Origin: Candidatus Omnitrophota bacterium
GTDB taxonomy: Bacteria > Omnitrophota > Omnitrophia > Omnitrophales > Aquincolibacteriaceae
DNA length: 64,000 nucleotides
Direction: 5' to 3'
Assembly (NCBI GenBank): GCA_043732705.1
Contig: JAYTHE010000026.1
Location: forward strand, 12,136 to 76,135
The notes beneath the pieces were generated by a model. The model did no database searches. It had not been told where the DNA came from and worked only from the letters and a program-made list of their open reading frames with translations. A program made the translations under genes and the position numbers. This document shows positions 23,191 to 47,311 of this stretch, in pieces. Each line of letters begins with the position of its first letter. The first letter of the stretch is position 1.

Positions 23191-23203
23191 GAGTTTTTAA
23201 CGA

Positions 23204-26109: not shown

Positions 26110-26123
26110 ATGAATGATTAAGC

Positions 26124-28427
26124 ATGATACAGATTTTTTGTGGATACTCTGGCTTAGTTAACTTTATTGTATGTATCGCTCTCTCAGTCTTCCTTTTTTT
26201 TGCCAATAGTAAAAGTAAAATAAATCGAAGCTTTTCTCTTTGGTCTGCCTGCGTAGCATGGTGGTCATTAGGCTATTTTGTTTGGCTATTTACTCCCAAT
26301 AAAGCTTCAGCCCTATTCTGGACGCGGTGCCTTATGGCAGGAGCTATCATTATCCCGTCCGCCTTTTTACATTTCGCTTTGATTTATGTTAAAAAAGACA
26401 TCCAACAAAAAAAACTTGTGTTTGGAGCTTATGCTTTTAGTTTTATTTATCTTATTTTAGATTTTACTAGCTACTTCATTAAAGACGTTGAGTCCCGGTA
26501 TTGGTTTCGTTTTTGGCCTGTTCCTGGAATTAGCTATCACTTGTTTCAGATATTTTTTATTTTAGCGGTAATTTATTCGCACTATTTGTTATTTAAAAAT
26601 GCAATTGATAGTAAGGTGGAAAGAGAAAAAAAACAATACATGTTGGTTGCTTTTGGAACTCTAGTTGCATTTTCTGGAGGAAGCACCAATTTCTTTATTT
26701 GGTATAACATACCTATTCCCCCCGTGCTGAATATATTAGTTGTTGGTTATGTTGTTTTGATTGCGCACGCCATACACTATTACAAGCTGTGGGATTTACA
26801 GCTGATTATACGAAGAACTGTGGTTTTTGCGGGGTTGTTAGCATTCGTTTTTGGTATATATTCAATGGCAACTATTTTTGTTCGTAATGTGTTAAACGAC
26901 TTTTTTTACATTCGTCCTTTTTGGTCAAACCTTGCTTCAATTTTTCTTATTGTGCTTGGTTACGATCCCATTCGAACCTTTCTTATTAACCTCACAGATA
27001 AACATCTATTTCAAAAAGGCTACGATTACCACAAGGTTTTGAAGGATGCTTCGCGGGGAATGGCAAAGATTGAAAGTCTTAAGCATTTGCTCGGTCTTGT
27101 GCTTCATTTTATCACCATGAAAATGCGTGTTGAAAATGTTGCGGTGCTTTCATTCGAAAACAGTGAGCGTTTATTTAGGTTGGTTGCATCGCGAGGTTAT
27201 CAAGGGAATGTCTCAAGAGTTTCTTTGAATACCGATCATCCTTTGATGGCCATGTTGCGTGAAACACGTGAAGCAATTCAATTGCATGAAGTGACGGATA
27301 AGCTTGAGAGTGCTGAAGAATCTGAATCTAGAGGAGATTTGAAAATTATCGGCGATGAAATGAAAATGCTGGGTGCAAAGTGCGCCATTCCAAGTTTCTT
27401 GGGCAATGATCTTAAAAATGTCCTTCTTATCGGGGACAAAAAATCTGGTGAGCCGCTCACATCGGAAGACATCAGCCTTTTGATGACATTAGCGCAGGAA
27501 GCCTCAATTGCGCTTGAAAATGCGCGTCTTTACGATGAAGCCATCAAGAAACAAAGGCAATTAGGGCAAATCAATGATCAGCTTGAGCACTCCAAAAAAA
27601 TGCTCGTGAATGCGCTATCTGAAGCGGAAGGCGCGAATAAGCAACTGCAAGATACGCAGGCGCAATTGATTCACGAACAAAAAATGGCGACGCTTGGACG
27701 TTTAGCCGCATCCGTCGGACATGAAGTCAATAATCCACTCACAATTTTATCGATGAATGTGTCGCGCGCAATTTTAAAATTCAGAAAAAATCCTGAATTG
27801 AAGGTGAGCGAGATTCTCGATGTATTCGACAAAATGGAAAAGAATATTGAGCGTATCAAGGCTGTTGTGAATACCCTCACCGGGCTTTTGAAGAAATCAG
27901 AAAAAGGGAAGTTTGAACCACTGTCGTTGAAGCTAATTTTGGAGGAAACTTTGCCGCTCGTTCAATTTCAAACTTATATGGATAACTTATCCGGAACTGA
28001 GGTGGAATTAAATGTGCCGGGCAGCGTTCCGCTGATTCGCGGCGATCTCGAGCGCTTGCAGGAAATTTTTCTTAATTTATTCATTAACGCCTATCATGCC
28101 ATGGCAAACAAACGCTTTCGGAAAATCCGTGTCGATGCTGAACTTGATCCTGAGGCCGCGGGAATGGTCGCGATTCATTTTACGGATAATGGCTCGGGTA
28201 TGAGTGAAGACACAATGAAGAAAGTGTTTAATTATGGCTACACCACGAAGCCTCCCGGAAAAGGTTCGGGACTTGGGCTTTATATGTGCAAATATATTGT
28301 CGAATTGCACGGTGGGACAATTCGAGTGAAGAGCAAGTTGGGCGAGGGCACAACCTTCACAGTGACTTTGCCGGTGTATCAAGAAGAACAAACGGCTGCA
28401 AGCGCGAGCCAGCAAAAGGCCGGATAA
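26124..28427 (+). CDS. Sensor histidine kinase (7TM N-terminal sensor - GAF - HisKA - HATPase_c), third paralog
   Basis: 7TM region. GAF-like middle. Coiled coil. H-box LGRLAASVGHEVNNPLTIL. DNGSGM ... GSGLGLYM. Confidence 0.85.
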   Translation: MIQIFCGYSGLVNFIVCIALSVFLFFANSKSKINRSFSLWSACVAWWSLGYFVWLFTPNKASALFWTRCLMAGAIIIPSAFLHFALIYVKKDIQQKKLVFGAYAFSFIYLILDFTSYFIKDVESRYWFRFWPVPGISYHLFQIFFILAVIYSHYLLFKNAIDSKVEREKKQYMLVAFGTLVAFSGGSTNFFIWYNIPIPPVLNILVVGYVVLIAHAIHYYKLWDLQLIIRRTVVFAGLLAFVFGIYSMATIFVRNVLNDFFYIRPFWSNLASIFLIVLGYDPIRTFLINLTDKHLFQKGYDYHKVLKDASRGMAKIESLKHLLGLVLHFITMKMRVENVAVLSFENSERLFRLVASRGYQGNVSRVSLNTDHPLMAMLRETREAIQLHEVTDKLESAEESESRGDLKIIGDEMKMLGAKCAIPSFLGNDLKNVLLIGDKKSGEPLTSEDISLLMTLAQEASIALENARLYDEAIKKQRQLGQINDQLEHSKKMLVNALSEAEGANKQLQDTQAQLIHEQKMATLGRLAASVGHEVNNPLTILSMNVSRAILKFRKNPELKVSEILDVFDKMEKNIERIKAVVNTLTGLLKKSEKGKFEPLSLKLILEETLPLVQFQTYMDNLSGTEVELNVPGSVPLIRGDLERLQEIFLNLFINAYHAMANKRFRKIRVDAELDPEAAGMVAIHFTDNGSGMSEDTMKKVFNYGYTTKPPGKGSGLGLYMCKYIVELHGGTIRVKSKLGEGTTFTVTLPVYQEEQTAASASQQKAG

Positions 28428-33125: not shown

Positions 33126-33299
33126 ATGACGCATCCTGAAAAAATAAACACAGATAGTTGGATCGAAATCAAATTGATTGTTGAGCCGGAGGAATATCGA
33201 TTCCTTCAAAAGCAAGCTCAGCGCAAAGACATGATGGTTTCAGACCTAATTCGGCAAATTGTTCTGCGCTACATCGGTAATGAACGGGGGAGTTTATGA
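33126..33299 (+). CDS. Small (57 aa) ribbon-helix-helix-like protein, translationally coupled to the giant gene
   Basis: Absent from the ORF table (below 60 aa). Reads MTHPEKINTDSWIEIKLIVEPEEYRFLQKQAQRKDMMVSDLIRQIVLRYIGNERGSL. The beta-alpha-alpha pattern is CopG/RHH-like. Its TGA overlaps the giant gene's ATG (ATGA at 33296-33299). No strong SD. Confidence 0.4.
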   Translation: MTHPEKINTDSWIEIKLIVEPEEYRFLQKQAQRKDMMVSDLIRQIVLRYIGNERGSL

Positions 33300-36200
33300 G
33301 GTTAAAAAAAACAGTCAAGAAAGTGACCGCGCTTTTTTTGATAGTTACTTTTTCTTGGACAAATTTAATTGGAGCAAATAGCTGGGCGGCAGTCGAGCCG
33401 ATTCAAATGGTTAATGGGCAAGCCACAGCTGTTACCGATCCTTTTGCCACGAATACAAGTACTACTCAGATGGGAACGGTTCCCGTTGATTTTTTAGCGC
33501 AACAACCTGTGGTGACAACCGCTGCCGCAGTCTCCTTGGTTTCAATTGCTCCTACAGCTGCATTAAAATCTACCAACGTATCAAGTTTGTTGGGGAACCC
33601 TAAACCTTATATTCTTTCTAGTTCAACTTCCGCGACAAATCTGAGCTATGTAAACAATGCATTCAATTTTGGTTATAGTGTTCCAAATACTAACGACAAA
33701 TCAGGATTTTCTGTTTCATTTGATAATACAAGTACGGCCTTGATAGAAACGCAAAGCCTAACAAAAATGACCTTGGGTTTGAAGGGCACTGCTTCGACAA
33801 TTCAACTCGAAATCGTGGACTCATCCGGAATGCACGATAAGATTTTACTCACAGGTATTTCAAACACAGTCGAGCAGTTTTGGAAGATTCCAACGGCCTA
33901 CTTTTCTGCTTCAGTGAATAAAGCGAAAATTACTCAAATTAATTTTATTGTTGATCAATCGAATACTACAACCACAGCCCGATCGGGAACTTTGAATGTT
34001 CGGTTGAACGGATTGGATGTCGCTTCGCCAACTGCGCCTCTTGTGCAATCTGCGCCGCCCGCATTTTCAAATGTGAATAATATTACCTTGTCAGGAGCCA
34101 AAGAAGCGAACACATCACTTTTGATTAATGGTGTTGAAGTTATGCCGCGTAATAACTCAACAGCCTGGTCTTATCAGGTGAGCTTGCCCATAGAAGGTAA
34201 ATATATATTCAGTCTGATTGTCAAAAATTCGCTTGGAAAAATCAGTGCGGCATCTACGGTTGCGATAACGCGTGATACTGTTTTACCAACCGGAACAATC
34301 ATAATCGATTCAGGGGCTCTTTATTCCACTGACTTAAATGTGGCGTTGAAGCTTTCGGCGGTAGACGCCGGCAGCGCGGTCAAAAAAATGAGTTTTTCAG
34401 CGGACGGAGTGAATTGGAGTGCTCAAGAAACTTATGTGACTGCAAAAACTCTGACGCTTTCCTCAGGCGACGGTAATAAAACGGTGTATGTGAAATTTTA
34501 TGACGGAGCGGGGAATGCTAGCGCCGTATATTCCAAATCAATCATTGTTGATACTTTACCGCCTTCCGGAACAATTAAAGTGAATGATGGTGTGGCGATG
34601 ATTAATCAACGGGTAGCAATGTTGAATCTTTTAGCTGTAGACGTTGGATCCGGTGTCAGCAAAATGAGTTTTTCAACTAACGGGACTTCTTGGACAACCG
34701 CAGAAGTCTATGGGACAACTAAAGATTGGATATTTTCAGCGGGTGATGGGAATAAAATAGTTTATGTAAAGTTTTTGGATAAGTCGGGTAAATGGTCAAC
34801 GCCGATATCAGCAGCTGTTTTGATGGATACAATCAAACCGACAGGATCAATTAATATTAATTCCGGAGCGGCTTATGTTAATTTGCCTGAGATTGCGCTT
34901 AATCTTTCTGCTGCCGATCTTGGGGGAGCAGGCATCGGCAGCATGAGTTTCTCGTCTGACAATGTGAATTGGACAGTGCCGGAAGCTTACACGACTACCA
35001 AATCCTTTGTGCTTTCTCCCGGCGATGGGAATAAAACAATTTATGTAAAATATTTTGATAAAGCGGGGAATGTGAGTGTCGCTTATTCAAAATCCATTCT
35101 ATTGGATACGATAGCACCAACGGGTACGATGCGTATTAACGGAGGCGAGTCTTTTGTTAGTCAGACAGCCGTAACTCTTAATTTAACCGCAGCTGATTCC
35201 GGTACGGGGCTCGATAAGGTAAGTTTTTCGAATGATGGTGTGAATTGGAGCGTGGCCGAAACATTTGCTGCCGAGAAAAATTGGGTGCTTGCGATTGGCG
35301 AAGATCTTAAAACTGTTTTTGTTAAGTTTCTTGATAAGGCCGGTAATTGGTCAAGTGTAATTTCTAATAGCATTTTTCTGGATGTCACCGCGCCCACGGG
35401 GGCAATCAATATTAACTCCGGCACTGCTTACACAAACTCAAAAAATATCACATTAAATTTATTAGCAAATGATTCTGGCAGTGGTATCGATAAGATGAGT
35501 TTCTCAGTAGATGGAATTAATTGGAGCGCGCTTGAAAATTTTACGGCTTCCAAAGCATGGATGCTTTCTGACAATGATGGGAATAAAACGATTTATGTAA
35601 AATATTTTGATAAAGCGGGGAATGGGAGTGTCGCTTACTCAAAGTCCATTATCCTGGACACTATCGCACCGATTATTGATCTTTTGAATGCGCCGACTCA
35701 TGCAAATAGCGCAAGTTACATGACTCAGTATCGTGTGGATGGCGTATTAAAAGACAAAGCTTTTACGCTTAGCTCCGGAATGAATGCGATTTCAATTCGG
35801 GAAATAGACTTTGCGGGAAATGAAACAATTCGCACATGGAATGTGGAATATTCTACGACGGAAGACATCAATCTTGCCGGCGGTGGGTTGCAACATTTTG
35901 AAAATGGAAAGATTCAGTATCAGGTTAATGCGGACGGGAGCCGGGTTAATTATAATTCGGATGGATCGATTGCGAATTTTTCATGGGGCATAGCGAATGG
36001 AAATACAAAGGTCACATTTTTAAATGACGCACAAAACTCTTTAGAAATACGCGACGCATCCAATCAATTAATCAAGATCATCTCAAATGTAAAACCCCCA
36101 GAGCCTAATTTGAGCAACGCTCTTAAAATTAATTTGCAAGATGGAATCGAGACTTACTATTCAGAAGGTGTCTTGAAGGAAATCCGGACTGCGGAAAATG

Positions 36201-39200
36201 TGAAGCTTTTTAATTTAACGATGTCCGCGCCTGTCTCCGCAAGTGAAGTGCCCGAAATACGGGATGCCGTGATTGCTTATCCTAATGGTTCGATTGACAT
36301 TATGTGGAATAAATTTTTGATCCGCAGAATCACAGTTGATGGATCAATTACAGATATGCTGCCTGACGGAACGATAGGCAGGGAAATTAGCGAGGAAATT
36401 GAGCAAACTTATCTCGGAATTTATGATGCCTCCGGAAATGTTGCAGGGACAAAAATTCTTTCGAATCAAGGCGACGAAGTCACTTACGACGAAAAGGGAA
36501 TTTTAAAAGAAGTCAAAGGGCATGATGGTAAGCATTTTGTTTATGATCGCACACAAAGTGGGAACCAGTATCTTTTAAGCCTAAACGGAGCACTTTCCAG
36601 TTCTGCGTCGGACCAAACGCTTAAATCAGGGAAATATGCGCAAGACGGAAGCGTTCTTGAGCTTGATTTTCAAAATGGCAGCAAAGTAACCTTTGAAAAC
36701 GGACAAATTAAACAGGCTGTAAATGCACAAGGTGAGACGGTTAATTACAGTCAACTGCTAAGCAATGGCCTCGCACAGGGGCTAATGGTGAATCGGGGCT
36801 TAGCCAATTTTACTTATGACATAACCGGTTTTCTCAGCCAGATTCAAACGGAACAAGGAATCATTACCCGCGAACAAGTGGACTCTAATCACGATGGTCT
36901 GCTCAATGACCAAGATACGGTCGATTTGCTGTTGGAGCTGACAGGCGGGAATAAACTCACGGATTTTCAATTGGATGTGAATGGGAAAATTTTAAATGGG
37001 ATTATCGAGACGCGCGAAGGTATAAAGCAGAAAATTGAAAATGGAATTCTTAGAGAGCTAATTACCGCAGATGGCAAAAAATATCTGATACATAACGGAC
37101 AGGCAGAACTTGATACTTGGGCATTTCAGGATGGCATAGTTGTGAAGTATGGCGGTACAAGTATTCAGCAGATTTTGTTTCCAAATGGGAAGCGTTTTGA
37201 GCAAGTGCAGCTTAACGCACAAAAAGAAATTGCAAGCTATGTTGAAATTGATGGTAACACACAAAGTTTTTTTGAAAATGGAATTTTAAAAAAGCGTGTT
37301 TTTGATGGGGTTCAGATTTTTTACTCAATAGATGGACGAGCTCAAAAAATAATCCGTGCGAATGGTGCCGAGGAATTTGTTGAGCATCAATTTGATGTGA
37401 ATGGAAATTGGGTTGGATTAAATCTGGTTAGTGCGGATGGCATGCTTGTTTACGATGAGGATGGAAAGCTTACCGCTATTTTGACATCAGGCTTAACCGC
37501 GCAGGTCGAAGATAGCACGATTAAGAGTCTTTCAACGCGCTTTGGAAATATACAAGATCCCGTTTTTAATGCTAAGGGCAATCTGAACGGAGAGGTTGTT
37601 TTATCAGACGAACGAAAACTTCTCATTCAGGATGGCAAACTTTTACGTATAACTTTTAAAAATGGAACACAGATTGATTGTGCCAATGGTCGCATCTCAC
37701 GCGTTGAAAATTCAGAGGGAATTTATCAGCTTACCTACTTGGAAAACTCTAGTGCCCTTGAGGATGTTAAAGTTAATTATGTCTTAAGCCCCGGTACTTC
37801 TGCCACCGGACTTACGGTTGAAATGAGCCTCGCAAGCTATTTACTAGCTAATCCTTATTCTGAATTTTCAAAAATCATAAGTCCTCGCCCTGCGAAAGAT
37901 ATTTTTGCGGGTGGAATACAAACACAGTTAGGCGCTCATGGTTTACTTGATTTATCAAAGATAGTTGAAGACCAAGATCGCGGAGATACTTACTCCGTAG
38001 GAGGGATTTTTGATCCAAACTTATCAGATATTTATAATTTAGATGGCAACTATAACGGCGGATATCTTAGCAAAAGTCTCATGGGGATGATTGCTTCTGA
38101 TTTACTAGATTTAGATGGAGATGGTGATTTAGACCGGATCTTTGTTGATTCTTCGAAAAATTTTTGGTGGGTTCAAAAATTTGAAAATGGAAGTTTCCTT
38201 TCTGCTGAGAAGTGGATCGGGATAGAGGCGATTGGAAATACAGTCAATAATTTTGCTTTAAGATTCTCTAATGACTCAAACACCGCGGTTATGGGTAACT
38301 TGCTGGATATGAACGGGGATGGCAGGCCTGATCGCGTAGTAGCTTCTGTAAATGAAAATCCCGTTTGGTATGTTCAATTAAATAATGGTGTCGGTTTTGA
38401 TCCGGCTAAAATTTGGAGTAATGTGCAGCCGCTTATCCAAATCAATGCCGGCGATCCTATCAACAAGTACGCGCTACAAGTTCGCGAGAATTCTTCGCAA
38501 AATCAGTTTTTTATCTCTGATTTAATTGACATGGATGGTGACAATTTGCCGGATCGCATTATTCAATCGCAAGCAAGCCCTGTTCCTGGCGCGGATCCAT
38601 TCAATCATTGGTTTTTTCAAAAAAATAACGGACATGGGTTTGATGAAGCTGTCATTTGGAAAGGGATTAACAATTCCTTTGATCTGGATCCTAAGATCGG
38701 CAGCGGCATGAACGTTTTTTTTAATAGTACAACTTGGTTTGATGAAGATCTGCGCCTTGCATTTACAAGCGCCCATGCAAGTTTTAATAACGCTTGGACT
38801 AGCAAAAATATTAATGCTTACCGTGCGACTTTCCTTCTAACTAAGTCAATGGTTAAAGGGCCTCCGGGAATCTTGAATTGGCTTAATAGCCTGGAACCGC
38901 AGCTTTTCGGAACGACATGTGTAAAGAACATATGCACTCAATATATAAAGGAAAACGTATACCAAGCGGCCAACGCACTTTTTTCAAACATTGATTCTGT
39001 CCAAAGAAATATTCTAACCACGAGCGTTCTAAAGGACATGAATGGCGATGGCCGGCCCGATCGAATTTTACTTAAACAGAAGAATCCGAGTAATGCTAAT
39101 TCGGGCTATAGCTGGTACATCCAATGGAATAATGGCAGCGGCTTTGATCCCGCTGTTCTTTTTGATGATCAAGTTCGCAGTGTGTCGGGCAGCATTGCGC

Positions 39201-42200
39201 AGCAGGGAGCATCCACCGCCATTCAATCTTTTTTTGCCTGGGATCAGAAAGAAAAGACACGCAGCTATCTGAGTTATTTAGCGGATGTCACGGGTGACGG
39301 CCTTCCGGACCGCATCACTTTAGATTCTTGGAGCATGGTTCCGGCAAATCGGTGGTGGGTTGAAGTGAATGATGGAAAAACTTTTAAGGATGCTGTTGCT
39401 TGGGATGGTGTGGAAGGTAGTGCTTTAGCCCAAATCGCGCCTTCCCAAGGTATTGAAGGAGCCGCGACGCAGAGTTCGAATGTAAGCGTGATATCAAAAC
39501 TAATTGATATAAATGGCGACAAAATTCCCGACCATATTTTTTTTAAGGAAGGAACAAATCAATGGGTTGTGCAGTATGGAACAGGGCACGGCTTTTTACC
39601 TTCTCAGCCGATGGAAATCCAGGGTATTCGGAACAAAGAAGCATTTAATGCGGCTAAATACGAATATGCGCACATAAGTTTGCGCGCTCAATATCCTGAT
39701 CTTGTTCAAAATGGCAAATTGGTAATTAGGCTTATCGATGAAAATAATAAAGAAGTTCAAAAATGGGAAATTACGGGCGCAAACAATAGCTGGAAAGATC
39801 AATATTTGGCGATTGACCGTGCAAAAACAGGCGGCCGCTATCTGGATGCGCGTTGGGAGCTTAATGCAGGGGTAGTTGCAGCCGATCCGCAAATTTTAGT
39901 CGATGATGTAAGTTTAATTTCGTTGCATCCCAATGCAAGTACGGAATGGCTAGATTATTTGCTTACGGAAGGGAATGTGATTAATGCCGTGCAAGCGGCG
40001 GCGAATGATCCGGCGATTCATGATTTAGCTCAAGTCGTTAATGCGCAAGACACATTTGATTGGAAAAAACTGCTCGCGGTCGAAACCAAAATTAATTTCA
40101 ATGCAACCGGCGCGGTTAGCGGCGCCGAAAAATTAAATGGTGAAACCTCACAAGTTCAAACTTCGGGCAACACAACCACGATTACTGTGGCGCATACCGA
40201 TGGAACTGTTACTCAAACCACAGTTCCCACCGCAGGTAGTTCAAATAGCTACACAAAAAGCATTAACTATGACAATGGAACACCGGATAATTTAACGGAT
40301 GACTACACTGAGATAGCTATGATTGCTTATGATCGTATGCGAAGTGTGACTCGTGACCACAGTCATAAACAACCGCTTCAATATTCTTATGAATTTGATG
40401 AATTAAATCGAGAGATTACAGTTATCTATGATCCTGATTCTAATGAAACTGAAAAATCACGGGCGGTTTCCGGATTAAATGGGGACGAAAATAAAATTGT
40501 CGCGCAAATCGCGGCCAACGGGGTTGAAACTCGCTACACCTACAATGCTTCCGCTGAGCTCACGCGCACCGAAATTACTTATAAGGGGCGCGTACGCGAA
40601 ACTTTTGAGCAAAGTATTACTGCGGACGGCCTTCACGCGCTCAAAACCGAATCGGGCTCAATCGAGTTTTATAATGAGCAAGGACAAATTGTCGGCCATC
40701 GCACAACCGATGGCTATTATTACAAGCATGAATTTGCTCCGGCTAAAACCATAGAGACTTCTATAACCACTAAAACAGTTGTGTTGTGCGATTCCGCAAA
40801 GCAAGATTGTTCAGCAATTCCTGTCGCGCAACGCACGCTTACAGTTCAAATTCCGACAGTTACCTTGACAGACTGTTTAATTAATTGCGAAACCATTCAT
40901 CAGGTTACACTCGATCATCTTACCGACTTAGATGGCAATATTGCTTTTTATACAGGCTCGCAGTTAAGCAGTCTTGAATTATCAACGGGCCTTAAGATGA
41001 CTTTCGACGGAATGATTACCGAAAATAGCAAAGATGTTAATGGTAATGATATTGAAATTACCAAGCCCAAGAACGTGGTCATTTTTCATCAAGATGGAAC
41101 GATCACTGAGTTTAAGAATGGTCTGCCATACTCTGTCACTTCCGCAGCTGGCCACGTTATTTCTATTGAGCCCGACACAGAGACGACGACTACAGGTCGT
41201 GTTGTATTAAAAAATCCTTCCTCCTCCGCCGAGTTTCACTACGCTGAAGCGGTCAAGCTTTGGAATCAGAAAGTTTTGGCTAATTTTGATAAATATCAAT
41301 TGCCGGACAGCCAAGTTGTGCAGGTGGAATATGCAAAGACGGGCAACAAGATCGTTACGCAGCTTTTCGCGTCAGGTGGGCGGGAAATGTATGACGCTGC
41401 CGGGCATATTGACTTTGTGGTTTCCGAAGAAGGGGATCGCATTATTGATTATGACTATGATGCAGCCGGCAATCCTACCGCGATCCATTTAGAAGGCTCG
41501 CGCCGCAAACTTGATCAGACCATATTAGATCTTAAAATTGAAATAGCTTTAAAACAGTATCAGTCTTTACTTGATGTGGCAGAACGCGAGCAGATTTTAA
41601 ATGAAACAGTAGAAAGTCAGTACATTGTTCAACGCAATCAGTTAATCGCGTTACGCGCGCAAATTGAATCGCAGCGAAACCAACTAGCCTCGATTAAAGT
41701 TAAAGGCAAAGCCGGTAAAAATTCAATATCGGACGCGATGCAGCAAATTAATGTTGGTCTCGGGCAGGTGAATCAGGCTTTATACCAATTGCTCGAAAAT
41801 CGTACGCAAGCGCTCGCGAATTTACAAGGCCAGGTGAAAAATCTTAATACGCAGATTAATGACCAAACAACGCAGGCTTACACGGACATTTCAAATAAAG
41901 AAAGAGAAGTTCAAAATTCAATCCTGACGCAGGAAATTTCGCCGATCGTTTATCACTGGTACCGCACAATTCTTGGTCGCGATCCCTCTGAGTCGGAGTA
42001 TGAAGCTGCCAAGTCTTTGGCCAACTATAGCTCGGGGACATTTAACCTTACAAGTCTTAAGGCGCAGCTTCAAAATAGCCCTGAATATGTCCAACGCACA
42101 GCGGAAGTAGCCGCGATTAAAGCCGCAGTTAAGACGCAATTGCTTAATTATTTAGCGGCAGATGACGCCGGCAAGCAAGCCTTTGTCGCAGGTTTAGGAA

Positions 42201-45200
42201 TTAATTCTCAAAATAGAGTGTCTCTTGCTCGGGCTGAAGTGGATGCAATTTTTGTATGGATGGATAAGCAAAACTTGCACTTTGGTCAATCCGCTTTCAT
42301 TTCCTTAGAAGCGCTGCTTGACGATGCGGGCATTGCGCACAACCGCATTAATATGGCGCGGGATTTAATTTTAACTGACATTATTACCGGTACTCTTACT
42401 CCGATTGAAAAAGGTGATTTGCTTATTTCGATGTATGCGATGAATGCCTATGCCGCCCGGTTTGGTTTAAATTTATCGCCACTCAAACTAACTTACGACG
42501 CCCTCAAGTCTATTTTTGATACTTGGTGCGTTGAGCATGGTTCATGCGCGGGATTCCGTTTGGTTGCGCATATGGATGGTAATCATTACGTTGTAGTTAC
42601 AGGCATTACTACGCGGGTTGAAGATGGGAAGACTATCGAAGAAGTTCACTATACTGATCCGGGCGCGGGCAAGAACGGTGACGAAGCGGTTGTCGTATCC
42701 AAAGATGATTTTTTGAAGTATTGGATTAATCAATCCGCAAAGTTAGACAGCCCGGATGCATCTAACTTACAAAACTCAGCTATGGGTTATATCCTCTCGC
42801 CGCGCGCGCCTCCGGCTGCTAAAAAAAGTGAATTCCGTGTTTTAAATTTCACAGAGCAAATGCAGGTTCGCGGCTCCTTCTTCTTTCTCATTCCCATTAT
42901 CGTAGCTGCTATCGTTGTAGCTATTCATGCCATTGTTGGCGCAATTATCGCAGCGATCACGGCGATTATCGGCGCACTCGTAGCAAGTGTTAGCACAATC
43001 ATTACCGGTTTCACCACGTTCTTTGGTGGATTATTCGGAAATTTCTTAACAACATTCTCTGGATTTTTTACCGGAATATTTCACGGTTTGACTTCGCTCG
43101 GCGGACTTGTTTTTAATGCGATTACGTACGGTCCTAATGCGGTTCTTGGAGTGCTTGGCCTGAAAGCCGGAACCTTTCTCGGCAGCGTGGTTTTCTCAAG
43201 CTTGATAGGCGCTGAATTCTTGGGTGCAGGAAAGCTTTTAGAATTGACGGGTTTGTCCCCAAAATTCGCGCAAACGATTATTAACTTTGGAAAAATTATC
43301 ACGGGTGTCAGTCTTATCGCAACGGGCGCTGGAAGTGTTCTTGGATTCGGATTCATCAGCGCGGGAACAACGGATTTGCTCCATGCCTATACAAATCTTT
43401 CACCGCAGTTTATCAATGCTCTTTCCATTGGTGCGCAGGCATTAAGCGCGTTTGGAATTGGTGGAGTTATCGGCGGAACTATCCAAGGCGCAATGAATGC
43501 GCTTAAAGAAGCAACTCCATTTTTGACGAAAGAGCTTTCATCGCTGGGGTTGCTTAGTTTTGGGACGAGCAAAAGCCTCAGGCTCGCTGCCTTGCTTGAA
43601 ACCCCGATCAATTTATTTACGGGCGCACTTTTGGGAGGAGGGTTTTCAGCAGCTAATATTCTGAACTCCGTCAAAACGGCGCTTTTTAGTCAGCAAGCAC
43701 TTGCTAGTTTTATTTCGATCGGGGCGCAAGTGGGACTGAATGCATTACCGATTAACCCTCTTTTGGCCGGCTTAGGCGGGGTAGTTATTTCGGGGCTGAT
43801 TGATGGATTGGTTCCGGTCAAAAAAGTTCCGGGCTTGGAAATTGGCGCGCCTATTTTTGAAACAACTTATCAATTGAAAGGCGTGCTGGAAGGATTAAAA
43901 AATGCCGTTCAACGCGCCTTCAATACTGTTTTGGAGACTCTTAGAACAGAGTCAGTGCGGTTTGACGTATCAGTTGCGAAAAATGGACTTAAAGCAACTC
44001 TCTCCGACATTGTAGCAAGCGCGCTTGACCGCTCTTCAATTGAAGGTTTGATTGGAACTGTCGGTAACCTCTCGGATTATATTGAAGACAAATATAACAA
44101 TCACTCCACGATCGTTAATTATCACGGTTCGCCGGCTAAAGAAGTCACTTTGGATGTAAATGGTAAAACCGTCATTATGACATTCGATCAGGCGACACAT
44201 GAACTTTTGCGCGTTGATGGCAGCAATGGGCATATTTTAGAAGGCGATTTGCGGCTTGGGGCGAATGGAAATATATACGCTTTTAACGGTTCGGAATTAA
44301 CCTCTGGAGCCAATGGCGTCGTGCAACAGTTTACTTATGAAGACGGCAATCTTGTTTTTTCGCGCTATGTCGGTGATGGTAAAGGCGCGGATTGGTACCC
44401 TGAGCAAGGTAAGAAATTAACTCTTTATTCAGACGGACAATTGCGTGACGGCATTATTGAAGACTTGAGTTCGGGCGCAAAGACGGTTGTGCGCAACGGA
44501 AAAATTATTGAAGTTATCAATCCGCTTAAGCTTGAAATCGCACCGAATTCAATCGGCGGCGAGCAAGTTCCACTTTTTGAGCAGGCAGGGCTGCTTGGCG
44601 AAGATGGAAAATTCACAAATTATGAATATCGAATCAATTCCGCGGCGCTAAAAGGAATGCGGTCAGATGATTTAAGCAGCGCGGCGTTGACGGGCTTAAA
44701 AGAATCCATGAATGATCTTTCCAGTTGGCAGGGAACACCGGCAGGATTTGCGAAAACAGGTATTCAAAAAGTTCAAGCATGGGAGGAGAATTTTTATGCG
44801 GTGAACGGCAGTCCTCTGACAAATCGCGGTTCCTTGGGTGTTTTTCTTGCGGCAGGAGCCATTAAAGGCGTGTTCGATATTGGCAATTTTGGAACAGACA
44901 CGTACTTGGCGGTGGAATCATTAAAAGAAGCGATTCGAACCGGGGAATTCGAAACCGGCGCGAAGAATTATTTTGATAATTGGAAAAATTCGCTTCTCAC
45001 TAATCCTTTGATTTCTGTGGCTAACGTATTTGGAGTCAACACCCCCAATTTAAATCAAGCCGTGTCGTCTATGGGCAACGAAACCATGCGCGTCATGAAT
45101 GCCTTTGGCACCGCAGAAATGGTCAAGGTTTTATGGCCGTACAAAGGAATTTTCGCTACGGGGTTAGTATCTGCTCTGAAAGATGATTTTGGACAGCTCA

Positions 45201-45748
45201 TTAGGAGTGAAGGCGGGTATATTCGAATTGTTCGAGAAACTTTTGGGGAAAGAGTATCAAGATTGCTTGGAAATCCTACCAGCGGTAACTTAAATGAGAT
45301 CGAGGGATTATTACGAAATAAAGTCAATATGCAGGAGGTCTTATTTAAAGAATATAAGAGTGCAACAGATGTGACTGAGGCGGCTCAACGCGGCTTTTTA
45401 AATTTGGATGTTAATACAGCACGATCATTTAAAGGCGGACAGTATCAAGTTAGAGTTTTATCGGAAGATCTTGTAGTGTATCGAGCAGAAGGTGGATTGG
45501 CCAAAAAATATGGCGCATTTTTTGGCACTGAAAAACCTATTAATGCTTACGATGCGGATCGGCTCTATAATGTCGTTGTGCATGGCAATGATGTGCAAGA
45601 GGTTTCTACGTATATAATTAAAAAAGGCACAGTGGTCTACGAAGGTGGGGTAGAAGGTGGGGTAGGTGTTCAAATGTTTTTGAGAAATCCAAAAGAAAAA
45701 GATGTGGCTCTTTTAGCTACAGAAATCTTAGAAAGAAGTACTACATGA
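33296..45748 (+). CDS. Giant (4150 aa) secreted multidomain protein: Ig-like tandem repeats, YD/RHS-like repeats, FG-GAP-like Ca-binding repeats, coiled coil, DUF4214-like motif, C39-like peptidase motif, 330-aa glycine-zipper hydrophobic region, variable C-terminal domain (polymorphic-toxin/teneurin/Tc-toxin-like architecture)
   Basis: Single uninterrupted 12.4 kb ORF. Signal peptide MRLKKTVKKVTALFLIVTFSWTNLIGANSWA. Five ~93-aa repeats (DT-PTG-I-IN-G...GDGNKT-YVKF-DKAGN). YD-like segments (VYDEDGKLTAI, ETRYTYNASAELTRTEITYKG). Six FG-GAP-like repeats of the form L-D-[MLI]-[ND]-G-D-G-x-P-D-R (written xDxNGDGxPDR elsewhere). Heptad-rich region at aa ~2740-2880. VYHWYRTILGRDPSESEYEAA (DUF4214-like). 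CAGFRL ... NHYVVVTG (Cys...His). aa ~3192-3521 is hydrophobic and G/A/I-rich. Confidence 0.85.
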   Translation: MRLKKTVKKVTALFLIVTFSWTNLIGANSWAAVEPIQMVNGQATAVTDPFATNTSTTQMGTVPVDFLAQQPVVTTAAAVSLVSIAPTAALKSTNVSSLLGNPKPYILSSSTSATNLSYVNNAFNFGYSVPNTNDKSGFSVSFDNTSTALIETQSLTKMTLGLKGTASTIQLEIVDSSGMHDKILLTGISNTVEQFWKIPTAYFSASVNKAKITQINFIVDQSNTTTTARSGTLNVRLNGLDVASPTAPLVQSAPPAFSNVNNITLSGAKEANTSLLINGVEVMPRNNSTAWSYQVSLPIEGKYIFSLIVKNSLGKISAASTVAITRDTVLPTGTIIIDSGALYSTDLNVALKLSAVDAGSAVKKMSFSADGVNWSAQETYVTAKTLTLSSGDGNKTVYVKFYDGAGNASAVYSKSIIVDTLPPSGTIKVNDGVAMINQRVAMLNLLAVDVGSGVSKMSFSTNGTSWTTAEVYGTTKDWIFSAGDGNKIVYVKFLDKSGKWSTPISAAVLMDTIKPTGSININSGAAYVNLPEIALNLSAADLGGAGIGSMSFSSDNVNWTVPEAYTTTKSFVLSPGDGNKTIYVKYFDKAGNVSVAYSKSILLDTIAPTGTMRINGGESFVSQTAVTLNLTAADSGTGLDKVSFSNDGVNWSVAETFAAEKNWVLAIGEDLKTVFVKFLDKAGNWSSVISNSIFLDVTAPTGAININSGTAYTNSKNITLNLLANDSGSGIDKMSFSVDGINWSALENFTASKAWMLSDNDGNKTIYVKYFDKAGNGSVAYSKSIILDTIAPIIDLLNAPTHANSASYMTQYRVDGVLKDKAFTLSSGMNAISIREIDFAGNETIRTWNVEYSTTEDINLAGGGLQHFENGKIQYQVNADGSRVNYNSDGSIANFSWGIANGNTKVTFLNDAQNSLEIRDASNQLIKIISNVKPPEPNLSNALKINLQDGIETYYSEGVLKEIRTAENVKLFNLTMSAPVSASEVPEIRDAVIAYPNGSIDIMWNKFLIRRITVDGSITDMLPDGTIGREISEEIEQTYLGIYDASGNVAGTKILSNQGDEVTYDEKGILKEVKGHDGKHFVYDRTQSGNQYLLSLNGALSSSASDQTLKSGKYAQDGSVLELDFQNGSKVTFENGQIKQAVNAQGETVNYSQLLSNGLAQGLMVNRGLANFTYDITGFLSQIQTEQGIITREQVDSNHDGLLNDQDTVDLLLELTGGNKLTDFQLDVNGKILNGIIETREGIKQKIENGILRELITADGKKYLIHNGQAELDTWAFQDGIVVKYGGTSIQQILFPNGKRFEQVQLNAQKEIASYVEIDGNTQSFFENGILKKRVFDGVQIFYSIDGRAQKIIRANGAEEFVEHQFDVNGNWVGLNLVSADGMLVYDEDGKLTAILTSGLTAQVEDSTIKSLSTRFGNIQDPVFNAKGNLNGEVVLSDERKLLIQDGKLLRITFKNGTQIDCANGRISRVENSEGIYQLTYLENSSALEDVKVNYVLSPGTSATGLTVEMSLASYLLANPYSEFSKIISPRPAKDIFAGGIQTQLGAHGLLDLSKIVEDQDRGDTYSVGGIFDPNLSDIYNLDGNYNGGYLSKSLMGMIASDLLDLDGDGDLDRIFVDSSKNFWWVQKFENGSFLSAEKWIGIEAIGNTVNNFALRFSNDSNTAVMGNLLDMNGDGRPDRVVASVNENPVWYVQLNNGVGFDPAKIWSNVQPLIQINAGDPINKYALQVRENSSQNQFFISDLIDMDGDNLPDRIIQSQASPVPGADPFNHWFFQKNNGHGFDEAVIWKGINNSFDLDPKIGSGMNVFFNSTTWFDEDLRLAFTSAHASFNNAWTSKNINAYRATFLLTKSMVKGPPGILNWLNSLEPQLFGTTCVKNICTQYIKENVYQAANALFSNIDSVQRNILTTSVLKDMNGDGRPDRILLKQKNPSNANSGYSWYIQWNNGSGFDPAVLFDDQVRSVSGSIAQQGASTAIQSFFAWDQKEKTRSYLSYLADVTGDGLPDRITLDSWSMVPANRWWVEVNDGKTFKDAVAWDGVEGSALAQIAPSQGIEGAATQSSNVSVISKLIDINGDKIPDHIFFKEGTNQWVVQYGTGHGFLPSQPMEIQGIRNKEAFNAAKYEYAHISLRAQYPDLVQNGKLVIRLIDENNKEVQKWEITGANNSWKDQYLAIDRAKTGGRYLDARWELNAGVVAADPQILVDDVSLISLHPNASTEWLDYLLTEGNVINAVQAAANDPAIHDLAQVVNAQDTFDWKKLLAVETKINFNATGAVSGAEKLNGETSQVQTSGNTTTITVAHTDGTVTQTTVPTAGSSNSYTKSINYDNGTPDNLTDDYTEIAMIAYDRMRSVTRDHSHKQPLQYSYEFDELNREITVIYDPDSNETEKSRAVSGLNGDENKIVAQIAANGVETRYTYNASAELTRTEITYKGRVRETFEQSITADGLHALKTESGSIEFYNEQGQIVGHRTTDGYYYKHEFAPAKTIETSITTKTVVLCDSAKQDCSAIPVAQRTLTVQIPTVTLTDCLINCETIHQVTLDHLTDLDGNIAFYTGSQLSSLELSTGLKMTFDGMITENSKDVNGNDIEITKPKNVVIFHQDGTITEFKNGLPYSVTSAAGHVISIEPDTETTTTGRVVLKNPSSSAEFHYAEAVKLWNQKVLANFDKYQLPDSQVVQVEYAKTGNKIVTQLFASGGREMYDAAGHIDFVVSEEGDRIIDYDYDAAGNPTAIHLEGSRRKLDQTILDLKIEIALKQYQSLLDVAEREQILNETVESQYIVQRNQLIALRAQIESQRNQLASIKVKGKAGKNSISDAMQQINVGLGQVNQALYQLLENRTQALANLQGQVKNLNTQINDQTTQAYTDISNKEREVQNSILTQEISPIVYHWYRTILGRDPSESEYEAAKSLANYSSGTFNLTSLKAQLQNSPEYVQRTAEVAAIKAAVKTQLLNYLAADDAGKQAFVAGLGINSQNRVSLARAEVDAIFVWMDKQNLHFGQSAFISLEALLDDAGIAHNRINMARDLILTDIITGTLTPIEKGDLLISMYAMNAYAARFGLNLSPLKLTYDALKSIFDTWCVEHGSCAGFRLVAHMDGNHYVVVTGITTRVEDGKTIEEVHYTDPGAGKNGDEAVVVSKDDFLKYWINQSAKLDSPDASNLQNSAMGYILSPRAPPAAKKSEFRVLNFTEQMQVRGSFFFLIPIIVAAIVVAIHAIVGAIIAAITAIIGALVASVSTIITGFTTFFGGLFGNFLTTFSGFFTGIFHGLTSLGGLVFNAITYGPNAVLGVLGLKAGTFLGSVVFSSLIGAEFLGAGKLLELTGLSPKFAQTIINFGKIITGVSLIATGAGSVLGFGFISAGTTDLLHAYTNLSPQFINALSIGAQALSAFGIGGVIGGTIQGAMNALKEATPFLTKELSSLGLLSFGTSKSLRLAALLETPINLFTGALLGGGFSAANILNSVKTALFSQQALASFISIGAQVGLNALPINPLLAGLGGVVISGLIDGLVPVKKVPGLEIGAPIFETTYQLKGVLEGLKNAVQRAFNTVLETLRTESVRFDVSVAKNGLKATLSDIVASALDRSSIEGLIGTVGNLSDYIEDKYNNHSTIVNYHGSPAKEVTLDVNGKTVIMTFDQATHELLRVDGSNGHILEGDLRLGANGNIYAFNGSELTSGANGVVQQFTYEDGNLVFSRYVGDGKGADWYPEQGKKLTLYSDGQLRDGIIEDLSSGAKTVVRNGKIIEVINPLKLEIAPNSIGGEQVPLFEQAGLLGEDGKFTNYEYRINSAALKGMRSDDLSSAALTGLKESMNDLSSWQGTPAGFAKTGIQKVQAWEENFYAVNGSPLTNRGSLGVFLAAGAIKGVFDIGNFGTDTYLAVESLKEAIRTGEFETGAKNYFDNWKNSLLTNPLISVANVFGVNTPNLNQAVSSMGNETMRVMNAFGTAEMVKVLWPYKGIFATGLVSALKDDFGQLIRSEGGYIRIVRETFGERVSRLLGNPTSGNLNEIEGLLRNKVNMQEVLFKEYKSATDVTEAAQRGFLNLDVNTARSFKGGQYQVRVLSEDLVVYRAEGGLAKKYGAFFGTEKPINAYDADRLYNVVVHGNDVQEVSTYIIKKGTVVYEGGVEGGVGVQMFLRNPKEKDVALLATEILERSTT
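34270..35680 (+). repeat. Five tandem ~279-bp coding repeats (Ig-like modules) inside the giant gene; repeats 3 and 5 are near-identical at the DNA level over ~100 bp
   Basis: GATGGGAATAAAAC(A/G)ATTTATGTAAAATATTTTGATAAAGCGGGGAATG ... CGCTTA(T/C)TCAAA at about 35028 and about 35578. The protein-level periodicity is listed in the call. Confidence 0.8.
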
Positions 45749-46107
45749 TTAAATCTTTATCCGAAACTCGCAAATCAATTGTAGAAATAGTTGGGTTTTT
45801 GAAAGTGCACAATGATTTAGTTTGGACTAAATATTTGAGTGGAATGCTTTCGGAGTTTGACAGGGTTTTTGGTGGAGCCGAAGTAGATCAGCAGGGTGGA
45901 AAAAGTATTTTAGAAAAAATCGACAAGCTATTCGGTGGCATGGGCTCATTGAATGATTTGAATATTTACAAAGAGAATGGTCATATTGTAAGTAATGAAA
46001 GAGAAGCCAATGTGGAATTAAGCAAATTACGATCAAGATTATTTGATAATGTTCAGAGAAGTATTTTGGAGATGCAGCAACAACAGGAGAGATCGGAACA
46101 TTTCTAA
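45745..46107 (+). CDS. Small (120 aa) cytoplasmic protein translationally coupled to the giant gene's stop; candidate immunity/partner protein
   Basis: Its ATG at 45745 overlaps the giant gene's TGA at 45746-45748 (ATGA). No signal peptide. Acidic, helical. Motif SILEKIDKLFGGMGSLNDL. The assignment rests on position only. Confidence 0.5.
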   Translation: MIKSLSETRKSIVEIVGFLKVHNDLVWTKYLSGMLSEFDRVFGGAEVDQQGGKSILEKIDKLFGGMGSLNDLNIYKENGHIVSNEREANVELSKLRSRLFDNVQRSILEMQQQQERSEHF

Positions 46108-46153: not shown

Positions 46154-46741
46154 ATGCCAAGAAGACCAAGAGTATTAGTAGATGGTGGAATCTATCATGT
46201 TTTTAATCGTGGAAATAACCGACACGATTTATTTTGTGATCAAGAGGATGCAGGAATTTTCCTTTCGTATTTATATGAAATCAAGCAAGAGCTTGGGGCG
46301 AGCATCTATCACTATTGTTTGATGACCAACCACTTTCATTTTTTGATGAAGGTTGAGAGGGGCGAGGACTTGTCGAAAGTGATGCATAGAGCACAATTGG
46401 GATATGCGCGTTACTTTAAGCGAAAATATAAATTTGTTGGGCATGTGTTTCAGGAACGGTTTCGAAGCCCATTAATTGATAGAGAGGCTTACTACCTCCA
46501 GTGTGGGAGGTATATCGAGCGCAATCCTGTCAAAGCGGACATGGTGAAGAATGCCTGGGACTACGAATGGACGAGTGCTACGTATTATGCGCTAGGTGAA
46601 AAGGATGGAATGATAACTCCAAACCCATATTATGAGGGAATGGGCAAGGATGCAGCGAGTCGGCAGGAGAGTTATCGTAGCTTTTTAGCGATCGAAGATG
46701 CTTATTCAAAGTTAATTGATGAGGCTTTAATTAAATGTTAG
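46154..46741 (+). mobile_element. IS200/IS605-family Y1 (HuH) transposase of the REP-associated tyrosine transposase (RAYT, COG1943) type
   Basis: IYHVFNRGNNRHDLFCDQED ... YHYCLMTNHFHFLM (HuH motif HFH) ... catalytic Tyr in YIERNPVKADMV. Matches the RAYT signature YI..NPVKA. Confidence 0.8.
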
Positions 46742-47040
46742 TAATCGAACCCGGCACTTTTAGAAATGTTCCGATCTCTGTTCTAAGATATGCCAGTGAA
46801 CAAAATGGAGCTGGTAGTTTTTTAACCAAAAGTAATTATTCAGATGTCGCTCAAGCTGTTAGTGGATTAAACTTGGAGCCAACTAATAATTTAGCAAGTT
46901 ATAAACAAGTGGTTATGGTGGAAAAACCCACGCTGGTTTTAGAAGGTAAAATTGCCGGAAGTGGTGATGGTTCTGTGCAATCAATAGTCCTCGAGAAAGA
47001 TAGCTTTGTTTTTCAGGCAGGAGAAAGTATTAATGATTAA
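46735..47040 (+). CDS. Hypothetical small protein (101 aa), coupled to the transposase stop
   Basis: ATG 46735 overlaps the RAYT stop by 7 nt. AT-rich DNA. No motif recognised. Confidence 0.4.
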   Translation: MLVIEPGTFRNVPISVLRYASEQNGAGSFLTKSNYSDVAQAVSGLNLEPTNNLASYKQVVMVEKPTLVLEGKIAGSGDGSVQSIVLEKDSFVFQAGESIND

Positions 47041-47311
47041 TAAAGTTTTAATTCAACTAGAAGCTTTAATTCGTCAGTTAGAAACGCCCTTACAAGAAGA
47101 AGAAAAACAGCAAGGGTGGACTGAAGAGAAAAGAAAGATATGGTTGAATTATTTTATTTCGGTGAAGCTTGAAATTAAACTTAAAGGAATTGAATATTAT
47201 AAGAAAAATTCCAAATCAATCATTAGGTCCTTAGATTCTCATAACATCCATGGCGGCAATATTCTCGAAAGCGCTTGTCGCCTTGAAAATTTGGTTCATG
47301 ATTTAAAATGA
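47033..47311 (+). CDS. Hypothetical small helical protein (92 aa; alternative start 47006)
   Basis: ATGATTAA overlap with the previous stop. Predicted helical. No motif recognised. Confidence 0.4.
   Translation: MINKVLIQLEALIRQLETPLQEEEKQQGWTEEKRKIWLNYFISVKLEIKLKGIEYYKKNSKSIIRSLDSHNIHGGNILESACRLENLVHDLK

Follow-up and report, generated by a model that had tools for sequence, protein, structure and literature searches.

A conserved hydrophobic block preceding the toxin-type tip of a giant Omnitrophota protein is a candidate membrane-insertion module

Introduction

What could more than three hundred hydrophobic, glycine-rich residues do near the C-terminus of a giant exported protein? The question is raised by a 4150-amino-acid (aa) protein of Candidatus Omnitrophota, encoded in a stretch of 64,000 nucleotides (nt) from assembly GCA_043732705.1 (contig JAYTHE010000026.1, positions 12,136–76,135, forward strand), which is the window of this study and to which all positions refer unless a locus is named. 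Omnitrophota are uncultured nanobacteria whose giant proteins are suspected of acting in attachment to other cells and in killing them, and the locus offers a concrete, testable mechanism for a family of proteins of 2,000–7,000 aa. An initial annotation of the DNA had described the block as a glycine-zipper region of 8–10 membrane helices, unexpected at its place, that would let a C-terminal effector translocate itself. Our analysis suggests that the block most likely helps to carry a toxin into or across a membrane. Tentatively, we read it as a protease-unmasked membrane-insertion module, part of the pre-toxin delivery cassette of a polymorphic-toxin-like giant surface protein of Omnitrophota. 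The protein is encoded by the following open reading frame (ORF).

33296–45748, + strand: giant ORF, 4150 aa (4150 codons)

Results

Extent and composition of the hydrophobic block

The block exists, and it comprises 317 residues instead of the roughly 330, reaching aa 3521, of the initial annotation, whose nucleotide start (42870) was one base out of frame and whose end (43860) overshot; read from that start, 42870–43860 translates with stops. It is divided as follows, where AF2 denotes AlphaFold2.

42869–43819, + strand: hydrophobic, Gly-rich, low-charge block, aa 3192–3508 (317 aa)
42878–43033, + strand: strongly hydrophobic head of the block, aa 3195–3246, the sole part reaching transmembrane-level hydrophobicity; a long helix in AF2
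43217–43810, + strand: moderately hydrophobic helices with G-L-x-P-type turns, aa ~3308–3505

The block begins with RGSFFFLIP (aa 3192), finishes with GLIDGLVPV (aa 3508) and is read in frame +0 of the giant ORF, which is the sole open frame across this region. The residues G/A/I/L/V/F/S/T, of which the block had been said to consist almost purely, account for 84% of it compared with 60% of the whole protein. Only 17 of the 317 residues are charged (5.4%; about 62 expected), whereas the charged fraction outside the block is 19.7% (binomial P = 1.9e-13), and the next most charge-poor 317-aa stretch elsewhere in the protein contains 32 charged residues. The block is real and far beyond chance. 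Support for glycine-zipper spacing is weak: GxxxG is mildly enriched (12 occurrences against 7.0 ± 2.2 in shuffled sequences, p about 0.02), GxxxGxxxG is seen three times against 1.0 (p = 0.09), and the more general small-xxx-small pattern is not enriched (44 against 38.8, p = 0.13).

The claim of 8–10 membrane helices was overstated, considering that only the first ~45 residues are hydrophobic at the transmembrane (TM) level and that the roughly 11 predicted helices are mostly moderately hydrophobic. The Kyte-Doolittle average over a 19-residue window (KD19) clearly exceeds 1.6 only at aa ~3195–3240, where it peaks at 2.9. A simplified Hessa sum, using values of the 2005 biological scale and no position weighting, gave a negative insertion free energy (dG<0) for one segment, 3212–3230, and a value near zero for 3193–3211. 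The rest of the block, about 270 residues, is moderately hydrophobic, with a family-averaged KD19 of 0.2–1.3. When the 500 aa after the upstream peptidase-like (C39-like) domain were scored in homologues, the median number of dG<0 segments was 0 and 62 of the 104 had none; some homologue blocks open with a W-rich interfacial sequence (GSGWWEDFW) instead of a TM helix. Since the block is for the most part marginally hydrophobic across the family, it fits conditional insertion better than a constitutive anchor. Pfam gave no match to the block at E<=1 and none at E<=0.1 for 29 homologue blocks, and NCBIfam gave none.

Conservation of the C-terminal cassette

An exhaustive HMMER search with aa 2951–4150 against 1.84 billion representatives returned 348 matches. 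Of the best 150, about 125 share the C39-like domain and are either 2,000–7,000 aa long or fragments of such proteins; one relative is annotated as a VCBS-repeat protein of Candidatus Omnitrophota. Among the 104 relatives with enough sequence after this domain, 95 have a hydrophobic block there that is rich in Gly, low in charge and at least 150 aa long, and family members continue for about 450–700 residues beyond the block. The order is fixed: peptidase-like domain, leader-like site, hydrophobic head, Gly-rich helices, a helical/beta domain and a variable toxin. The N-terminal scaffolds vary (ILEI, CBM60, Laminin_G, Big_13 and FG-GAP). The block belongs to the conserved pre-toxin part and not to the variable tip; far from being unexpected, as it had first appeared, it has a fixed place in a cassette that recurs in more than 100 homologues, almost all from Candidatus Omnitrophota.

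A first genome scan with a single protein as query found nothing; a scan by pattern, covering one genome per GTDB species, located 48 loci. Nearly all are in Omnitrophota metagenome-assembled genomes (MAGs) or in MAGs labelled only 'uncultured Planctomycetia' or 'uncultured bacterium'. Several genomes contain more than one cassette locus. One relative, P0057, had the appearance of a stand-alone gene for leader, block and toxin, which we rejected because a frameshift lies within the C39-like domain of its locus, L050. At L050 positions 3300–4100 this frameshift splits the gene into products of 2,890 aa and 877 aa (P0057), and is explained by either a pseudogene or an assembly error.

A C39-like domain and a leader-like motif upstream of the block

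Directly before the block lie a domain and a motif that recall the processing of bacteriocin leaders.

42248–42790, + strand: papain/C39-like domain, aa ~2985–3165, based on a sub-threshold Pfam match, conserved columns, AF2 and Foldseek
42842–42877, + strand: double-glycine-leader-like motif LNFTEQMQVRGS, aa 3183–3194, with predicted cleavage after S3194

Three positions of the domain stand out in 100 homologues. S2999 (nt 42290–42292), within LHFGQ-S-AF[LI][AS]LEALL, is Ser in 99 and Cys in one (P0007, 'GQCAF'); H3097 (nt 42584–42586), within GN-H-[YF]V[VI][IV]T, is His in all 100; and D3121 (nt 42656–42658), within [VI]TYxDPGxG, is Asp in 55 and Glu in 44. These positions parallel the C39 layout, in which the nucleophile opens a helix (CGxAAL), His belongs to an nHfvVl strand and Asp follows some 16 residues later within DP; the triad of LahT is Cys27/His101/Asp117 (PMC6363468). 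A strict Cys-His-Asp triad is thus replaced by a Ser-His-Asp/Glu variant that retains a catalytic-type set. Strict membership of the C39 family fails owing to the Ser at the nucleophile position and the sub-threshold score, while the strict conservation of the residues, together with the lone Cys variant at the same position, argues for catalysis. A natural Cys-to-Ser swap of the nucleophile may suit an oxidising extracytoplasmic compartment; by contrast, the Cys-type C39 toxin domain of StbD is redox-gated (bioRxiv 10.64898/2026.05.07.723447). The domain was predicted by AF2 with a predicted local distance difference test (pLDDT) of 80–90. Two further searches with the C39-like domain or its alignment recovered fragments only.

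The motif lies about 60 aa downstream of the C39-like domain and coincides with the start of the block. Its family consensus is L-[ST]-x-x-E-x-x-x-[IV]-[RK]-G-[AS], followed by F-[FWL]; in 100 members the columns are L74/I20 at −12, S47/T27 at −11, E56/Q18 at −8, I64/V33 at −4, R75/K17 at −3, G99 at −2 and A70/S28/G2 at −1. Double-glycine leaders follow the rule Leu(−12)-X3-Glu(−8)-Leu(−7), in which position −4 is hydrophobic and the cut is made at Gly-Gly, Gly-Ala or Gly-Ser (PMC6363468); it is also given as LSXXELXXIXGG (PMC1538908). Five of six positions of the family motif agree with this rule in exact register. Within the 4150 aa the strict motif is found a single time, at aa 3183, against 0.052 expected, and a relaxed motif is present at this place in 81 of 119 homologues against 0.009 expected per window of search. 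In AF2 the motif forms a short helix (aa 3185–3190) adjoining the C39-like domain, and its pLDDT of ~84 indicates a confident placement relative to that domain. Taken together, a C39-like fold with a double-glycine-like site in cis is well supported by motif evidence, though not proven.

The toxin-type tip and its coupled downstream ORF

At the end of the giant protein lie a further pre-toxin segment and the tip, followed by a second ORF.

43865–44635, + strand: conserved helical segment and beta-hairpin-repeat domain, aa ~3524–3780
45392–45733, + strand: C-terminal toxin-type domain, aa 4033–4146, in common with the Rhs proteins P0107 and P0118 and many small proteins
45745–46107, + strand: coupled downstream ORF, 120 aa, DUF6966 (E 1.4e-9); putative cytoplasmic immunity protein

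As the initial annotation had it, the block stands between a long exported repeat region and a C-terminal effector, and the effector is a domain of the polymorphic-toxin type: the last ~110 aa are about 50% identical to the C-termini of P0107, P0118 and many small proteins. P0107 carries DUF6531 and eight RHS repeats before the shared tip; P0118 is a YD protein of 4,735 aa in which the canonical core-end motif, ...DPIGFAGGDANLYGY..., directly precedes the shared domain. Neither Pfam nor NCBIfam has a family for the toxin domain itself. Clustering of the last 220 aa from 104 family members gave 40 groups, and the tip of the query is unique within the family. The largest cluster has 53 members with alpha/beta-hydrolase-type GYSGG...[GS]H-DY motifs, read from the sequences, and the tip of one member matches RES weakly.

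The start of the downstream ORF overlaps the stop of the giant ORF, and its product has neither signal peptide nor TM segment. P0150 has the same toxin domain, and its C-terminal part, beyond that domain, shares 33% identity with this product. Across 26 genomic loci, a coupled ORF on the same strand comes after the giant ORF in nearly every case, and the toxin-tip clusters co-vary with the downstream-ORF clusters. Exchangeable tips with co-varying downstream ORFs match the polymorphic toxin–immunity signature as defined in PMC3482391. Because the putative partner at this locus is cytoplasmic, the target of the toxin would be cytoplasmic too, and a membrane would have to be crossed. P0107 and P0118 are homologues that keep the toxin and lack the block, a situation that the initial annotation had named as evidence against a translocation role. 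Formally such proteins do occur; in polymorphic toxins, however, the same toxin without the block only shows that the tip is exchangeable between delivery scaffolds.

Several side observations concern the tip and its surroundings. Lipase-like tips are found at L002, L003, L005, L008–L011, L018, L019, L024, L025, L027, L028, L034, L036 and L049; all 16 of their partners carry an N-terminal signal or TM sequence, whereas the partner of the query and several others do not. Lipase effectors that act in the periplasm are paired with their immunity proteins in the same way. An IS200-like Y1 transposase gene (46154–46741; PF01797, E 7e-13) lies just downstream of the toxin/immunity-like pair, and another lies downstream of the pair of an unrelated homologous locus (L050, 8183–8758); such a transposase may be involved in exchange of toxin cassettes. 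Two overlapping ORFs of 101 aa, a possible orphan immunity cassette, follow the transposase gene at 46735–47311. The first (46735–47040) was considered as an orphan toxin fragment and rejected (BLASTP against the toxin domain, E 86), and the second resembles the DUF6966 ORF marginally (BLASTP E 0.04, single comparison). In the segment between block and toxin, AF2 predicts a sheet of beta-hairpin repeats at aa ~3605–3780 (44108–44635) with a pLDDT of ~84, which is kept in many family members and has weak Foldseek matches to OspA single-layer sheets and Rhs repeats.

Predicted structure of the block and its nearest resemblances

Two AF2 runs, made with alignments of 17 and 29 sequences, both predicted the block, at low to moderate confidence, as entirely helical with about 11 helices. 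A buried beta-solenoid core, which had been named as the counter-prediction, was accordingly rejected. Two long helices come first (aa 3198–3246, 49 aa, and aa 3250–3287, 38 aa), and nine helices of 12–26 residues follow, separated at conserved Gly/Pro turns: GLSP at 3319–3322, NLSP at 3367–3370 (with P3322 and P3370 within them), P3408, P3437 and P3488. Weak internal repeats surround these turns, with probabilities of 63–74% in profile-profile comparison of the segments.

The initial annotation had compared the block with the pore or delivery regions of Tc and large clostridial toxins. This comparison did not hold: neither Pfam nor a Foldseek PDB search with the block model revealed sequence or fold similarity to the translocation regions of TcA or TcdA/TcdB, and the Foldseek search against the PDB gave nothing at E<0.3. 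Neither of the two AF2 models yielded a significant fold match for the block. The three best matches of the block profile among PDB sequences, obtained with a high compositional bias, are all tape-measure proteins: monocin FtbJ (9j1k, E 7e-7), phage 80alpha gp57 (6v8i, 3.6e-4) and one further tape-measure protein. FtbJ has been identified as such a protein (PMC11830787), and tape-measure proteins are thought to embed in membranes (PMC11830787, PMC5099701). Among the PHROG families matched by the 29 family blocks, 8 of 10 are tape-measure families, and phrog_1272 alone is matched by 9 of the 29 blocks (best E 2e-7). Residue-shuffled versions of the 29 blocks matched no PHROG (0/29), so the resemblance requires the order of the residues, or their local composition at the least; overall composition alone does not produce it. 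We regard the link as a resemblance of sequences and not as demonstrated homology. A phage origin of the block was rejected, as no viral contigs carry the family: 2.9 million viral contigs contained no relatives. No tail gene module was found around the gene of the block, whose neighbours are chromosomal genes.

Organisation of the giant ORF and its genomic context

33296–33388, + strand: putative Sec signal peptide, aa 1–31 (MRLKKTVKK...ANSWA|AV), judged by eye

The giant ORF encodes, in order, the signal peptide, OmpL47-type/Ig-like domains, FG-GAP/VCBS-like and YD repeats, a coiled coil and the C-terminal cassette. In the first 2,800 aa Pfam and NCBIfam identified OmpL47-type barrel domains, one FG-GAP repeat and weak YD/RHS repeats (TIGR01643, 24.8 bits; PF05593, E 0.0028). 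A scan of the entire protein found no DPxG[LWIF] motif, HINT and PrsW domains are absent from it, and an exact look-up of the protein gave no record. A resembling N-terminus is present in 54 of 75 full-length homologues. These N-termini share an unusual pattern, ...[LI]-T-F-x-x-x-Q-[IVL]-x-[WY]-[AS]-A/D (for example LLLTFPFTQTGWSAD and LITFLTSQISWAAD), which we read from this protein and from P0004, P0007, P0009, P0020, P0025–P0027 and P0031 and which could be a lineage-specific sorting signal for these giant proteins.

The remainder of the window is an ordinary diderm chromosome, with a TolC-like/HlyD-like/AcrB-like RND efflux operon, a FadL-like porin, glycogen-type enzymes and topoisomerase I. 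A linked secretion system was sought and rejected, as only the RND efflux operon, histidine kinases and sugar-metabolism genes are nearby; across the homologous loci examined there are no conserved neighbours, secretion genes included. Of two tandem AcrB-like RND transporter genes, the second (12084–15752) encodes a product of 1,222 aa that has the unusual architecture of a fused C-terminal RDD-family domain. Three successive histidine kinase genes with a HisKA_7TM sensor region lie at 20888–28427. The homologue P0026 (L001) likewise has a HisKA_7TM-type kinase upstream, a hint of partial synteny or of regulation in common.

Discussion

Proposed mechanism

From what we observed, that is, the anatomy of the protein, its conservation, the register of the motif, the polymorphism of the toxin, its co-variation with the downstream ORF and the helical prediction, we infer cleavage, membrane insertion and translocation in the following manner. 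The N-terminal ~2,900 aa would be exported and serve as a variable, adhesin-like stalk. The papain/C39-like domain, with its Ser-His-Asp/Glu set, would cut in cis after S3194, at the start of the block, and thereby release a C-terminal fragment of about 955 aa whose new N-terminus is the very hydrophobic FFFLIPIIVAAIVV... head. Such a release would resemble the removal of a bacteriocin leader or the unmasking of a viral fusion peptide. The head and the Gly-rich helices may then enter the membrane of a target cell, carrying or conducting the C-terminal toxin onward. The destination of the toxin at this locus would be the cytoplasm, because the putative immunity protein is cytoplasmic; an immunity-like ORF that is coupled to the toxin and lacks a signal peptide implies that a membrane-crossing step is needed. 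The self-translocation that was first proposed was right in spirit, and the C39-like domain and the double-glycine-like motif shift it to insertion primed by a protease. Precedents for such a course are the large clostridial toxins, with their protease-plus-delivery-domain arrangement, hydrophobic bacteriocins, which leader removal activates, tape-measure proteins that enter membranes and the GxxxG-dependent translocation of Tde1.

Several points weigh against protease-unmasked insertion. On the side of the peptidase, Pfam Peptidase_C39 (PF03412) matches with E 0.0043 and 17.3 bits, below the 22-bit threshold, and covers the His region only; the profile of the domain found nothing significant among PDB sequences, the only entry being 3erv, a 'putative C39-like peptidase', at E 1.6; and the fold match is modest, with PCAT1, a peptidase-containing ABC transporter (PCAT), at a Foldseek probability of 0.80 and calpain protease cores, both with weak E-values. 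With Ser at the nucleophile position, the domain could be a non-catalytic binding domain. Position −7 of the motif is Ala or Thr and not Leu, and hidden Markov models of double-glycine leaders responded marginally to 79 motif peptides, with BlpC and TIGR01847 matching one member each at E ~0.06. On the side of the block, the AF2 confidence is low (pLDDT 27–50 in the first run and 46–82 in the second), and the tape-measure similarity is highly biased in composition, with the query block itself missing E 1e-3. No secretion genes are linked that could provide an exit through the outer membrane of the producer. Moreover, with a dG of about −2 on the simplified scale, the head is hydrophobic enough for Sec arrest in the producer.

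Alternative explanations

This last point leads to the main rival, which we consider unlikely. If the head of this protein arrests Sec export, it would be an anchor: after export of the N-terminal 3,190 aa it would act as a stop-transfer sequence, leaving the stalk tethered to the cytoplasmic membrane, and the C39-like domain would shed the stalk or have another role. Consistent with this, the N-terminus resembles a signal peptide, and the single dG<0 segment, with KD19 up to 2.9, is the only TM segment of the protein. Surveys of Omnitrophota giant proteins read C-terminal TM regions adjoining C39-like domains as anchors (bioRxiv 10.1101/2023.11.21.568195), and 39% of long proteins have been reported as 'signal peptide + TM' (10.64898/2026.06.07.730766). 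The family data agree poorly with an anchor, given the 62 of 104 homologues without a dG<0 segment in the 500 aa scored and the blocks that start with a W-rich interfacial sequence, and conserved K/R residues at 3181, 3190 and 3192 would lie on the exported side, contrary to the positive-inside rule. An anchor also leaves unexplained some 270 further conserved residues with G-L-x-P motifs, as well as the toxin and its cognate ORF beyond the block, including the lipase-like tips with exported immunity-like partners. The anchor and the cleavage models are not exclusive, since cleavage could release a tethered precursor.

In another reading, which we consider improbable, the block itself would be the weapon: leader-type cleavage would activate it as a very large pore-former of the bacteriocin or microcin kind, and the C-terminal domain would be secondary. 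A double-glycine-type motif followed by a Gly-rich hydrophobic sequence is indeed the layout of class II bacteriocins and class IIa microcins (PMC10233263 for microcins), and membrane-depolarising glycine-zipper toxins are known in the type VII secretion system (PMC12744356). Yet tip and downstream ORF vary in concert beside a conserved block, which indicates that immunity tracks the tip and not the block, and the homologous loci examined contain no conserved second immunity gene. A passive structural element without membrane role, such as a tape-measure-like helical spacer, an oligomerisation stalk or a biased linker, has equally little probability: it would account for the sequence similarity to tape-measure proteins, for predicted helices of 49 and 38 aa that exceed the thickness of a bilayer and for the low AF2 confidence, but a charge of only 5.4% over 317 aa is atypical of soluble coiled coils, the motif positions are conserved, the hydrophobic head strictly adjoins the cleavage-type motif, and the family has neither a phage tail context nor viral contigs.

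Returning to protease-unmasked insertion, its cleavage step would, if real, bring the cis-processing of giant extracellular toxins into the C39/double-glycine system, which serves small peptides exported by ABC transporters, and add a new kind of translocation domain to the repertoire of polymorphic toxins. With Ser in place of Cys, the domain would be a rare case of a papain-fold peptidase whose nucleophile was exchanged in nature. A more far-reaching proposal, which is possible although we doubt it, is a self-contained toxin-injection device that does without a dedicated secretion machine in ultra-small, possibly predatory Omnitrophota. In such a device, a Ser peptidase derived from a bacteriocin-leader peptidase would cut its built-in site outside the cytoplasm, where a Cys enzyme would be oxidised, and would unmask a fusion-peptide-like or tape-measure-like conduit for a toxin-bearing tail of about 600 aa into prey. 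Such a protein would unite bacteriocin processing, phage membrane penetration and polymorphic toxins in one evolutionary chimera.

Comparison with known systems

Polymorphic toxins, C39 peptidases, double-glycine leaders and hydrophobic translocation segments are each already known. In the literature searched we did not find their combination in cis, the Ser nucleophile, the extracytoplasmic setting or a tape-measure-like block of ~300 aa in Omnitrophota giants; published accounts of these giant proteins mention 'C39 domains' and 'transmembrane regions' in general terms only. Polymorphic toxins with releasing peptidases (Zhang, Aravind et al. 2012, PMC3482391) resemble this protein in their long filamentous or repeat N-terminal scaffold, internal processing peptidase (a putative one here), variable C-terminal toxin and adjacent co-varying immunity-type gene, and in tips held in common with Rhs proteins. 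In that survey, however, C39-like domains figure as toxin tips (Tox-PL-C39) rather than as processing domains within the protein, ahead of a hydrophobic block. The present protein differs in the absence of the Rhs-core DPxG[LW] motif, of HINT and of PrsW, in its origin from Omnitrophota and in having no known secretion system linked. It is likewise unlike the Rhs/YD toxin cage, as its YD/RHS matches are weak and the DPxG[LW] autoproteolytic core motif is missing.

PCATs, also called ABC-transporter maturation and secretion (AMS) proteins (ComA, LahT and PCAT1), have a papain-fold C39-type domain whose layout the candidate peptidase domain of this protein parallels: the nucleophile position belongs to a helix, His to an nH[FY]vV strand and Asp to DP. 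Their substrates share Leu(−12), Glu(−8), Ile/Val(−4), Gly(−2) and Gly/Ala/Ser(−1), and many class II bacteriocins likewise have a hydrophobic, Gly-rich sequence past the cleavage site. Here, in contrast, peptidase and 'leader' are fused in cis within a giant exported protein that has no ABC transporter domain, the nucleophile position is Ser in 99%, Leu is missing at −7, and the domain has a sub-threshold Pfam score and a predicted location outside the cytoplasm, where that of PCATs is cytoplasmic.

Tape-measure proteins (FtbJ 9j1k, 80alpha gp57 6v8i, PHROG 1272 and others) provide the best sequence-level matches to the head and have similar A/G/I/V-rich long helices. They are proposed to enter the target membrane and form a conduit for DNA, whereas the cargo here would be a protein toxin. 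Unlike them, the family has no tail genes, does not occur in the viral contigs searched and matches with biased composition, the query being below the threshold. Effectors of the type VI secretion system (T6SS) offer a further parallel: in Tde1, GxxxG segments drive translocation (PMC10240207), and both Tde1 and effectors of the Tse6-type prePAAR kind carry short, GxxxG-rich hydrophobic segments before the toxin, without which the cytoplasmic membrane of the target is not crossed. With a length of tens of residues, reliance on the T6SS and on chaperones and no linked peptidase, these segments stand in contrast to the 317 aa within a giant protein of Sec-type export seen here.

The large clostridial toxins (TcdB) and MARTX are alike in logic. 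In both, an autoprocessing protease domain stands beside hidden, membrane-inserting hydrophobic helices that deliver an effector. They differ from the Omnitrophota protein in that no sequence or fold similarity was detected and in the protease family and its trigger; the effector of TcdB is N-terminal, and the effector here forms the C-terminal tip of the cassette.

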